A stretch of 64,000 nt of DNA from Eledone cirrhosa (taxonomy: Eukaryota): assembly GCA_964016885.1 (NCBI GenBank), contig OZ024740.1, forward strand, positions 394,692,001 through 394,756,000, written 5' to 3'. Below the pieces are notes generated by a model. It saw only the letters and a list, made by a program, of their open reading frames with translations. It was not told the origin of the DNA and did not search any database. How positions within the stretch are numbered: position 1 is the first letter of the stretch; each line of letters opens with the position of its first letter. The translations under genes and the position numbers were made by a program. Shown in pieces: positions 45,733-48,270 of the stretch.

Positions 45733-46345
45733 TCACTGATGAGGGACTCATTTTATAACATGTTATCCATGTGCAACCAGCAGTATTCTTCTCACTCATA
45801 TTTTCATATATTCACCCAAACTGCAATTCTGTGTTTCTCTCTTTCTCTCTTACTGCTCCCTCGTTCTCTCTGTTTCTCTTACTTTCTTTCGTCCCCTCTG
45901 CCATGTCAGTTAACTCTTTCTCTCTACTGACCTCTTCCTCGCACTCCCACTCACTCAGTCCCTGTTTCTCCCCTTCTTTCTTCCTCCCGTTCGCTGGGAA
46001 AACGGTTTTCATTCTTTTTAACACCAGATTCACTAGCGTAAGGTCTGTTTTCTGACTCGCTCATATATTCACACAGCTTATGCTGAAAGAATAACTATGT
46101 TGCTTGTGTTTATTTCCATCTTCGGTTAGCTTCCCCCTGTGTTGTTTACTTGTCTCACTCGCTTTACGCGTTTCTATTGTCCTAATAACTTATTTTAGTT
46201 ATTATCGCTCCAACGTGAGGTATATGATTTTTAATGCGATGAAATACCCATGATCGTTTGGTAAATCACTGATGAGGGACTCATTTTATAACATGTTATC
46301 CATGTGCAACCAGCAGTATTCTTCTCACCCATATTTTCATATATA
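45733..46345 (+). mobile_element. Retrozyme-like non-coding element A (79-bp direct repeats, 533-bp period)
   Basis: TCACTGATGAGGGACTC...CATATTTTCATATAT at 45733-45811 and 46266-46344; CT-rich interior; ends in (TA)n. Confidence 0.7.
46179..46280 (+). ncRNA. Structured RNA motif with permuted hammerhead core, copy A
   Basis: Six helices, several covarying with the copy at 48107-48211; invariant TGAGGTATATG, TAATGCGA, GAAAT, CACTGATGAGG. Confidence 0.6.
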
Positions 46346-47119
46346 TATATATATATATATATATATATATATATATATATATATATATGTGTGTGTGTGT
46401 GTGTGTGTGTGTGTGTGTGTGTGTGTGTGTGTGTGTGTGTGTGTGTGTGTGTGTGTGTATATATACACAGTGGCGGACTAGGTCCAAAAATATTGGTTGC
46501 CAGATGAAGGGGGCCCACTTAAATATAGAATGCTACCATTTTATTTTTATAATGAATAAATAACATTTTCAAAAAATACATAAGTGGAAACAAAACAGTG
46601 CAATCAAATTTTTGCGGAAAAATATCTTACCTCCTCCAATAAAAAATATTATGTATTTTGCGAAATCCAGAGACTTTCAATAATAACCTTTGGTCTTTCA
46701 CACTCACTCAATATATATATGTGTGTGTATGCGCGCGTGTGTGTGTGCATCTATAGAGTCGAGACATATCCAAGGATCTTGCGATTTCAGAGTCAGGTTT
46801 GATCATTGCATTGATCATGACGCGAGCTGGTCGCCAGAGAAACGATTTTAATATGTCTAATTTATGTTATTCGTCGCGCCACTGATTCTCCGTTTCTTAT
46901 GTGATATTATAGTCTGCTCTGTAAGAGCATCGAGTGTTCAAACGGCATACCGCTTACGGACGCTTTAAGCATCCCACACCAATTATGAATATATATATAT
47001 ATATATATATATATATATATATATATATATATATACACCACCTTCACCACTAATTGATTTGACAGATGTCTTTAACTCATTGATACCAAATATTATTTGG
47101 TCAGTAGTTCGTGTGTAAG

Positions 47120-47566
47120 TATATATATATATATATATATATATATATATATATATATATATATATATATATATATATATATATATATATATATTTATAT
47201 ATATATATATATATATATATATATATATATATATTTATATATATATATATATTTATATATATATATATATATATATATATTTATATATATATATATATAT
47301 TTATATATATATATATATATATATATATATATATTTATATATATATATATATATATATATATATATATATATATATATATATATATATATATATATATAT
47401 ATATATATATACATATATATATATATATATATATATATATATATATATACATATATATATATATATATATATATATATATATACATATATATATATATAT
47501 ATATATATATATATATATATATATATATATATATATATATATATATATATATATATATATATATAT
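47120..47566. repeat. Interrupted (TA)n microsatellite, about 450 bp
   Basis: Directly visible. Confidence 0.97.
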
Positions 47567-48270
47567 GTCCCACTGATGGAGACAAACTTTTTCATATGTA
47601 ACCCATTTGCAGCGCCGCAGCTCCATTATTATCATATTTACACATATTTTTCCTCCGCTGCCACCAGTCTGTTTCGTTCTCTTTGTGTCTTTACCCTTTC
47701 TAGCAGTCTCTCTCTCTCTCTCTGTTAGCCTCTTCCTCACCTTTCACTCACTCGCTCTCTGTCACTACCTCTCCTCCTCCCCTTTCTTCCCGTTTGACCT
47801 GTCCGTAATCCTTTTCTCGCGGGTACTTGGCCAAGCCGGTATGAATTTTTTTTCTCTCTCTCTCTCGTCTGCGACTTCACAGAACTTATGTTTACCGAAT
47901 TCGCAGACCAGACCCCTTCTTCCTCCCGTTAGACCTGTGCGAAATTCCTTCCTTGCTCACATTTCAACCAGGTTTGATGGTCTTTATTCTCTCGTTCACG
48001 ATTCCACCGAATTTATATTCATAGAAATCTGGGACTTGTTTCTTCTTCATCACTTTCTGCTGCTTAAACCATTTTGTCTGTTTACCCTAGCGTCCCCTTT
48101 ATTTACTTGTCCCAACGACTTTTTTTAGCCGTTGCTCGCACCAACCTGAGGTATATGGCCTTTAATGCGACGAAATGCCTACGACGGTTGGAAGGCCACT
48201 GATGAGGACAAACTTCTTCATATGTAACCCATTTGCAGCGCCGCAGCTCCATTATTATCATATTTACATA
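47567..48270 (+). mobile_element. Retrozyme-like non-coding element B (~72-bp direct repeats, 626-bp period) in (TA)n
   Basis: CACTGATG..GACAAACTT.TTCATATGTAACCCATTTGCAGCGCCGCAGCTCCATTATTATCATATTTACA at 47571-47642 and 48197-48268; (TA)n on both flanks; CT-rich interior. Confidence 0.75.
48107..48211 (+). ncRNA. Structured RNA motif with permuted hammerhead core, copy B
   Basis: Helices ttgtcc/ggacaa, caacg/cgttg hairpin, tcgca/tgcga, ccaacc/ggttgg, aggta/tgcct, tggcctt/aaggcca around CTGATGA, GAAA and A-U-A. Confidence 0.62.

Follow-up and report, generated by a model that had tools for sequence, protein, structure and literature searches.

Non-autonomous Penelope-like elements of Eledone cirrhosa carry a predicted hammerhead of type SGC whose stem II is split

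Two copies of a hammerhead-type RNA, A and B, lie in a stretch of 64,000 nucleotides of the Eledone cirrhosa genome (contig OZ024740.1; hereafter, the window). The motif is real and covarying, and self-cleavage is predicted for it. Judged from its sequence, each copy is likely to be a cis-acting hammerhead of type SGC, placed near the 3′ end of a non-autonomous Penelope-like element (PLE) descended from the Naiad clade. According to Eckert et al. (2023; PMC10085705), the hammerhead can be divided into blocks S, G, and C, and the established types I to III correspond to the orders CGS, GSC, and SCG. In both window copies the order is cleavage site, GAAA, CUGAUGA, that is, S-G-C, which is none of these three and therefore lies outside types I, II, and III as modelled in Rfam. 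The two motifs and their helices, assigned with a helix-by-helix script, are as follows.

46179..46280, plus strand: copy A, predicted hammerhead of type SGC in which stem II is split (helices P1, P2, P3, P4, III, I), based on core and covariation
Between 46224 and 46225, plus strand: predicted cut of copy A, after AUA
46179-82/46277-80: P1 of copy A, GUCC/GGAC
46183-90/46197-204: P2 hairpin of copy A
46205-08/46236-39: P3 of copy A, UCGC/GCGA
46210-15/46255-61: P4 of copy A, CCAACG/CGU(U)UGG, with one bulged U
46219-23/46244-48: stem III of copy A, GGUA/UACC
46225-30/46263-68: stem I of copy A, UGAUUU/AAAUCA
46241-44: GAAA of copy A
46269-75: CUGAUGA of copy A
48107..48211, plus strand: copy B, the same predicted motif from a different subfamily
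Between 48155 and 48156, plus strand: predicted cut of copy B, after AUA
48107-12/48206-11: P1 of copy B, UUGUCC/GGACAA
48113-20/48127-34: P2 of copy B, with one A-C mismatch
48136-40/48166-70: P3 of copy B, UCGCA/UGCGA
48141-46/48186-91: P4 of copy B, CCAACC/GGUUGG
48149-54/48175-80: stem III of copy B, AGGUA/UGCCU
48156-62/48192-98: stem I of copy B, UGGCCUU/AAGGCCA
48172-75: GAAA of copy B
48199-205: CUGAUGA of copy B

The full hammerhead core and all six helices are intact in both copies, with a stem I of 6 to 8 pairs and a stem III of 4 to 5 pairs plus the A15.1-U16.1 pair; the window motif has no palindromic stem III loop. Stem II amounts to at most one pair, G-U in copy A and G-C in copy B, and is split: the strand before GAAA pairs with an upstream arm through P3, and the strand after CUGAUGA pairs with that arm through P1, on either side of the hairpin P2. 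In addition, P4 joins the upstream arm to the G-C linker of the same unit. Both the G10.1-C11.1 pair and a two-pair stem II are important for hammerhead activity. Nested minimum-free-energy folding, which cannot represent the pseudoknotted motif, gave z-scores of -3.9 to 0.0 over six sequences and produced competing structures, notably a long helix in copy B that displaces P2.

The motifs and pairings that a preliminary description had named in these copies are all present, the A-C mismatch in P2 of copy B being one detail it did not mention. Its reading of a hammerhead core in reversed order with six helices holds, as do the predicted cut after AUA and its expectation that standard descriptors would miss the motif. 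The Rfam scan of the 64-kb window returned nothing at the gathering threshold; between 45600 and 48900, the 47 weak matches (up to E 5) included no ribozyme family, only sub-threshold hairpins, snoRNAs, and repeats. The published SGC descriptor calls for a direct stem II in which G-C is followed by 2 to 6 further pairs, with no more than 15 nt linking G to C (accessible text of PMC10085705), and our re-implemented SGC descriptors matched none of five test sequences, namely the two window copies and three Naiad-type loci treated below (L288, L301, and L320).

Covariation was evaluated in an alignment of 28 rows, consisting of 30 representative copies minus six (three near-duplicates of the window copies and three with a deletion or duplication inside the motif), plus the two window copies and loci L123 and L131. 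In this alignment, 88.8% of cells pair, compared with 27 to 45% in slid registers. Changes on both sides were found in 18 of 37 pairs, against a shuffled mean of 10.5, and none of 500 shuffles reached the observed value; since the rows are related and the structure was derived from the same sequences, these figures are not probabilities. Double changes affected 5/7 pairs in P2, 5/6 in P4, and 6/7 in stem I. The weaker helices within this genome were stem III (1/6), P3 (0/5), and P1 (1/4, counted with the B rows one column out of register).

The core was intact in 154 of 164 distinct copies, and position 17, the nucleotide at the cut, was A in 153, C in 10, U in 1, and G in none; one subfamily has AUC instead of AUA at this site. 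Variants shared among the 164 copies fell in 1 of 11 core columns and in 68 of 111 other columns (Fisher p 0.001), a comparison in which core conservation is inflated by a sample partly picked with core-containing patterns. Positions 11.1 and 10.1 were U-G in 74 copies, C-G in 71, U-A in 7, and something else in 3, that is, canonical in 152 of the 155 scored copies of the window family. Some relatives lack the pair: L301 has C and C at these positions, and L122 and L123 have A and G. In L320, three stem II pairs are possible. The one-pair stem II opening into a junction, as previously described, is a real difference from published SGC hammerheads for the window family and does not extend to all of its relatives.

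Copies A and B reside in separate carrier elements, with the following features.

45733..46344, plus strand: element A, one 533-nt non-coding unit and a 79-nt terminal direct repeat, ending in (TA)n (self-alignment 98.7% over 79 nt)
45733..45811, plus strand: 5′ partial repeat of element A, starting 3 nt before CUGAUGA; it lacks the cleavage site and the GAAA strand and is thus not a ribozyme
46345..46389, no strand: (TA)n tract in which element A has its fixed 3′ terminus, probably the site targeted on insertion
47120..47566, no strand: (TA)n tract 5′ of element B, resuming at 48269
47570..48268, plus strand: element B, flanked by (TA)n tracts, one 626-nt non-coding unit and a terminal direct repeat of 73 nt that self-aligns at 95.9%
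47570..47642, plus strand: 5′ partial repeat of element B, with a mutated core; not a ribozyme

These elements are non-coding, non-autonomous Penelope-like elements with the ribozyme about 120 nt from a fixed 3′ end. Partial tandem repeats, a fixed 3′ end, 5′ truncation, and a 5′ inverted copy are PLE features found in them, and every tandem unit carries one predicted hammerhead of type SGC. One array (L135) contains five cores exactly 533 nt apart, and the core spacing in another (L025) is 623 to 630 nt, with a B-type unit of approximately 625 nt. Between the A and B units, the ribozyme and tail are best kept (74% over 133 nt), and the remainder aligns as two short pieces. The preliminary description did not include this carrier context, neither the Penelope-like retroelement family nor the recurrence of the motif in Naiad elements.

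The host genome measures 3.0 Gb and is rich in microsatellites. A first look gave 1,810 candidates for B and 1,422 for A, and the best 40 of each, which were scored, were 99 to 100% identical; for element A, 40/40 of these best-scoring matches (of the 1,422 candidates) were 100% identical over 151 nt. A pattern of shared motifs had 1,756 matches in the genome versus 0 in the reversed control, and looser patterns had 2,731 versus 0 and 3,503 versus 8; as these are counts of cores rather than of elements, and lower bounds, the genome holds at least 3,503 cores. Copies A and B are separate insertions from two high-copy subfamilies, each with its own ends, which ruled out a functional pairing of the two. 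At least three older families have different stem I sequences (305 pattern matches versus 45 in the control), and their stem I pairs in 17 of 28 loci, compared with 1 of 120 viral pattern matches; we read that single viral-contig match as chance. Many variants of the region are present in the four contig sets aligned to it.

The ends of 80 insertions were compared, drawn from loci L001 to L090 after leaving out 8 overlapping loci and 2 without an alignment at 90%. The 3′ ends lie 110 to 129 nt past the predicted cut in 37/38 A and 34/42 B insertions, and a TA or CA repeat flanks the 3′ side in 31/38 A and 30/42 B insertions (61 in total). The 5′ ends are scattered, and 16 of the 42 B insertions have a 5′ inverted copy. 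In 21 of 88 B cores the element ends earlier, roughly 14 nt beyond the core; on inspection, this shorter end is that of inverted copies. At most 2 of the 80 insertions have a 5′ end at the predicted cut, one of them an alignment artefact, so that insertions do not mark the cut site. In turn, 36/80 exceed one unit and run through at least one cut site. Because the fixed end is inside the unit and insertions cross the cut site, the template would be a circle or an uncleaved multimer rather than a linear cleaved monomer.

Naiads dominate many invertebrate genomes and are reported to lack canonical hammerheads; 10 Naiad cases labelled 'HHR_core' and 8 labelled 'HHR_half_core' fit no descriptor, and the ribozyme was suggested to be dispensable or parasitic (Craig et al. 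2021, PMC8557442, accessible text). The window elements, like Naiads, combine a (TA)n bias with the absence of a canonical hammerhead, the bias itself not being Naiad specific, as Neptune-type PLEs share it. We inspected the 54 published Naiad consensi by eye for CUGAnGA matches, a reading that missed motifs broken at line ends and left out some late places as well as spider and other arthropod cores; the consensi stayed outside the joint alignment and its statistics. Nine of the 54 have the order of the window together with stems I, III, and P3: three from Acropora, two from octopus, one in the Clytia part and one in the ostracod part of the file, and two in its part 12. In the two octopus consensi the helices follow the order of the window motif, the P2 loop is 6 nt long as in copy A, and the short UGA linker is likewise present. 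A ctenophore consensus has the order of the window with a two-pair stem I, and six nematode consensi of the 54 read as a clean CSG arrangement with a normal stem II. Read in this way, many of the Naiad cores that had fitted no descriptor resolve into SGC or CSG permutations.

A decayed Naiad reverse transcriptase (RT) was located in this genome, and a sister copy used as query led to 150 proteins, with an N-terminal GIY-YIG match in 6 of the 8 that were scanned. The 100 Naiad-type loci comprised 80 from metagenomes and 20 from genome collections, the latter mostly short contigs in prokaryote bins, which are probably eukaryotic carry-over. Scanning downstream of the RT for all six block orders identified three SGC loci (L288, L301, and L320), one CSG locus (L322), and no canonical hammerhead, with 1 match in the antisense control and 0 in 20 shuffles. 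A first, stricter scan of 80 loci had given L288 only, and stem III was relaxed to three pairs after L301 was seen. The other 96 of the 100 loci had no core, and at least 400 nt of downstream sequence was available in 71 of the 100. The three SGC loci carry all six helices in the order of the window, in the 3′ UTR and with different sequences, as in P3 (GGACCA/UGGUCC, GCCGCG/CGCGGC, and GCCAC/GUGGC), and they occupy separate branches of an RT tree built from 37 rows, 4 from this genome and 33 from the set of 100 loci. L320 has a 921-aa open frame of a full Naiad, with an N-terminal GIY-YIG motif, CxC, DKA, and RT, and L322, with GIY-YIG-like and DKA motifs, carries a candidate CSG ribozyme. 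Rfam, run on 20 of the 100 loci, detected no ribozyme family, only two SECIS matches in L315. Outside the window family, every occurrence of the six-helix arrangement that we found was in a Naiad-type locus or consensus.

We cautiously favor, on these grounds, a broader view in which Naiads would carry mirror-order hammerheads across animal phyla, with a split stem II in the SGC form (cnidarian, ostracod, and octopus) and the CSG form in nematodes. The split form may represent a hammerhead active site without a stem II helix, with a third strand closing the four- or five-way junction. In that case, this genome would hold the first retrozyme-like family of the class, with thousands of young copies, and animal retroelements could be the main reservoir, and perhaps the source, of non-circularly permuted hammerheads.

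A search for an autonomous partner found no intact Naiad RT in this assembly, only decayed Naiads, and a rare intact copy may still exist. It included three protein queries (best 150 of 254, 121 of 6,372, and 95 of 7,540 candidates scored) and a PF01541 search (best 150 of 10,595 candidates scored), in which the long frames examined carry a C-terminal endonuclease. A DKA-motif pattern had one match, a decayed Naiad, a word-based protein search with the decayed RT had none, and viral contigs yielded no Naiad RT. The 3′ UTRs of the Naiad remnants in this genome have no clear SGC core; an SGC-like string in the 3′ UTR of L192 was not counted, as it is not common to the 9 sister remnants. The young autonomous PLEs of this genome have a C-terminal endonuclease and no sequence in common with the A and B units; some of them end in (TA)n, and those showing a core have it in canonical order. 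The A and B units had no informative similarity to 130 PLE loci and no coding remnant, and no RT remnant was linked to the ribozymes. A link to the neighboring C-terminal-endonuclease PLE frames (L141 and L150) was ruled out because these are separate insertions. A Naiad protein match near L123 was also rejected; the N terminus of the query P0064 matches there a transposase-like fragment, which we take to be mariner-like. Given that no intact Naiad was found and that the young PLEs have a C-terminal endonuclease, the young A and B copies would owe their mobility either to a Naiad that escaped the search or to a different PLE acting in trans.

In the explanation that we prefer, stems I and III and the CUGAUGA and GAAA strands would form the usual hammerhead active site, with P3, together with P1 and P2, replacing stem II. 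P1 and P4 would clamp the pseudoknot, allowing a single unit to fold alone. Cleavage after AUA, or after AUC in one subfamily, would turn a read-through transcript of at least two units into RNA of unit length, which would probably be circularised. A Penelope-like RT-endonuclease acting in trans may nick (TA)n and prime at an AU-rich site about 120 nt downstream of the cut, and by copying around the unit, the RT could generate 5′-truncated insertions that are sometimes inverted and longer than one unit. The prediction of activity derives from the conservation of the core and from the published SGC assays (PMC10085705, accessible text). Points against this explanation are that a stem II beyond one pair is impossible in both window copies and the 10.1-11.1 pair is lacking in some relatives, that stem III, P3, and P1 show few or no double changes within this genome, that nested folding gives competing structures, that 5′ ends do not mark the cut, that 96/100 Naiad-type loci have no core, and that the Naiad RTs here are decayed.

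A rival idea is that the element is not Naiad derived, and that an SGC motif arose or was acquired separately in a retrozyme-like element mobilised by a C-terminal-endonuclease PLE. The search of the assembly found no intact Naiad RT despite copies that are 99 to 100% identical, young PLEs of that kind ending in (TA)n do exist, and the units have neither a coding remnant nor similarity to the 130 PLE loci. We nevertheless find a separate origin unlikely, as the six-helix arrangement was seen only in Naiad-type loci and consensi, the core-bearing C-terminal-endonuclease PLEs of this genome have the canonical order, and the two octopus consensi match, by eye, in helix order, P2 loop, and UGA linker. 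Even an element of Naiad origin could be mobilised in trans by a different PLE.

The Naiad-derived, self-cleaving element that we prefer was also weighed against two other views of the RNA itself. The reduced or absent stem II, the insertions that cross cut sites (36/80) without 5′ ends gathered at the cut, and the low in vitro activity reported for metazoan PLE hammerheads (PMC4209133, accessible text) would suit a structure derived from a hammerhead that has lost efficient cleavage and is used in RT or endonuclease recognition and template positioning, with the core kept for its fold. This seems quite improbable given that G is avoided at position 17 and the catalytic positions stay invariant in the different subfamilies and in Naiads whose helix sequences are unrelated; moreover, a circular template would give the same read-through of cut sites. 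Alternatively, cleavage might take place in a dimer or across tandem units that exchange S, G, and C blocks, the pseudoknotted monomer not being the active form. Tandem arrays are common, minimal PLE hammerheads work as dimers (PMC4209133, accessible text), and three crossing helices with short linkers may be strained. However, P1 and P4, which covary across Naiads, connect the G-C half of a unit with that unit's own 5′ arm, the palindromic stem III loop is absent, and published SGC single motifs cleaved during transcription (PMC10085705), all of which makes exchange between units very improbable.

If the preferred explanation is true, the 'core' and 'half-core' motifs of Naiads would be complete ribozymes in permuted order, and the ribozyme would be restored as a general part of Penelope-like transposition. 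Permuted hammerheads would gain a host and a route between SGC and CSG, by a shift of frame in a tandem array, and genome-wide counts of hammerheads and retrozymes would be missing a whole class. The split stem II would also probe the extent to which helix II is required by the hammerhead active site. Two complementary gaps meet here, as permuted hammerheads have been described without a known organism (PMC10085705) and Naiads without canonical hammerheads (PMC8557442), as far as the accessible text of each goes.

The preliminary description had presented the reversed order as a candidate novel topology, which needs correcting: the order is that of type SGC, for which Eckert et al. (2023; PMC10085705) have already given a description and demonstrated cleavage. 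In the accessible text of that paper, natural type SGC comprises 583 sequences, found in metatranscriptomes only, with cleavage at 0.007 to 0.19 per min and as single motifs; type CSG is represented by two unique sequences from DNA metagenomes with no host element named, and GCS by one reported candidate, which alone comes from the genome of a known organism. How the non-circularly permuted hammerheads arose was a question raised there. The window motif resembles the published SGC RNAs (HRIMA-1 and the SGC variant) in the S-G-C order, the CUGAnGA, GAAA, and UH core, stems I and III, the short linker that leads from stem I into the strand preceding GAAA, and a length of about 100 nt. The published RNAs have a direct multi-pair stem II, whereas the window copies have at most one pair; and the helix that in the former joins the strand preceding stem I with the one following stem II is replaced in the latter by P4 and P1, which pair with the upstream arm instead. 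Type CSG belongs to the same reversed cyclic class (PMC10085705) and fits L322 and the six nematode Naiad consensi, not the window.

Our literature search, which covered few subscription papers, found no report of permuted hammerheads from animal genomes or from Naiads; hammerhead permutations are cited in one sentence of PMC13725137 (accessible text). Non-LTR retrozymes and minimal PLE hammerheads are of type I (CGS), have a short palindromic stem III, and act as dimers, and retrozyme detection pipelines use type I descriptors, which would not find the window family (PMC4209133; 10.64898/2026.07.22.740005, accessible text). Li et al. (2026; 10.64898/2026.07.22.740005) used type I models only, according to the accessible text, and functions besides cleavage are not excluded for metazoan PLE hammerheads (PMC4209133, accessible text). 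Like the window elements, retrozymes are non-coding tandem units with one hammerhead each, thought to be non-autonomous PLE derivatives that move via cleaved and circular RNA (PMC4209133; 10.64898/2026.07.22.740005, accessible text), and the hammerhead of each non-LTR retrozyme unit is of type I rather than SGC. With Naiads, as described in the accessible text of PMC8557442, the window elements share a partial tandem pseudo-LTR, 5′ inverted copies with a shorter end, the (TA)n bias, and the absence of a canonical hammerhead. They differ in being non-coding and only 0.5 to 0.6 kb long, without the Naiad-clade frame (N-terminal GIY-YIG, CxC, DKA, and RT). Overall, the block permutation was already known; what appears to be new is the form with a split stem II, together with its occurrence in animal Penelope-like elements.

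Copies A and B are predicted type-SGC hammerheads of two Penelope-like element (PLE) subfamilies. Four of the 80 insertions (L001, L020, L032, and L048; two from each subfamily, with the window copies among them) start 40 to 41 nt past the predicted cut, immediately before CUGAUGA, and 2 further insertions start 62 nt past it. Perhaps these starts reflect stopping of the reverse transcriptase (RT) at the folded ribozyme.

Immediately 3' of copy B, we also observed the inverted, head-to-head ends of another PLE, both arms of which harbor a minimal hammerhead core in canonical order:

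48361-48800, inverted ends of this PLE
48638-48644, + strand, CUGAAGA of the canonical-order core
48658-48661, + strand, GAAA of the same core

The sequence of 48361-48800 was also found 3' of open reading frames (ORFs) of PLEs with a C-terminal EN (L141, L147, L148, L153, and L157). Elsewhere in the genome, cores in SGC order also occur in decayed repeats of greater age (L161 to L190), which form at least three families, each with a stem I sequence of its own.

Among the other repeats in the window, a 255-nt inverted pair (5672-5926 and 8173-8427; 96% identity, 2.2 kb apart) is possibly a DNA transposon or a fold-back element. This pair accounts for four (5718, 5979, 8112, and 8374) of the 11 window matches to CTGATGAG, and an SGC scan found no hammerhead pairing at the matches belonging to it. 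Moreover, 16899-17264 on the minus strand is a further putative PLE remnant, as judged from a weak match to a GIY-YIG region (E 6e-7).

Additional domains and elements were observed at Naiad-type loci. In L301 (1-1765), the RT is followed in the same reading frame by approximately 300 residues that, from their Cys and His boxes, presumably resemble a ubiquitin-specific (C19) cysteine protease domain; the predicted SGC ribozyme starts approximately 30 nt 3' of the stop codon of this frame. Downstream of its RT, L315 carries a SECIS element (345-407 and 4183-4245; Rfam RF00031, above the gathering score) and is likely a selenoprotein Naiad.

L322 harbors a type-CSG hammerhead, with 6 pairs in stem I and 9 in stem III, in the 3' untranslated region of a 1,013-aa Naiad-type ORF (predicted cut after 4410). 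The two published CSG RNAs come from DNA metagenomes (PMC10085705). They have their upstream hairpin arrangement in common with nematode Naiad CSG motifs and may themselves be Naiad 3' ends.
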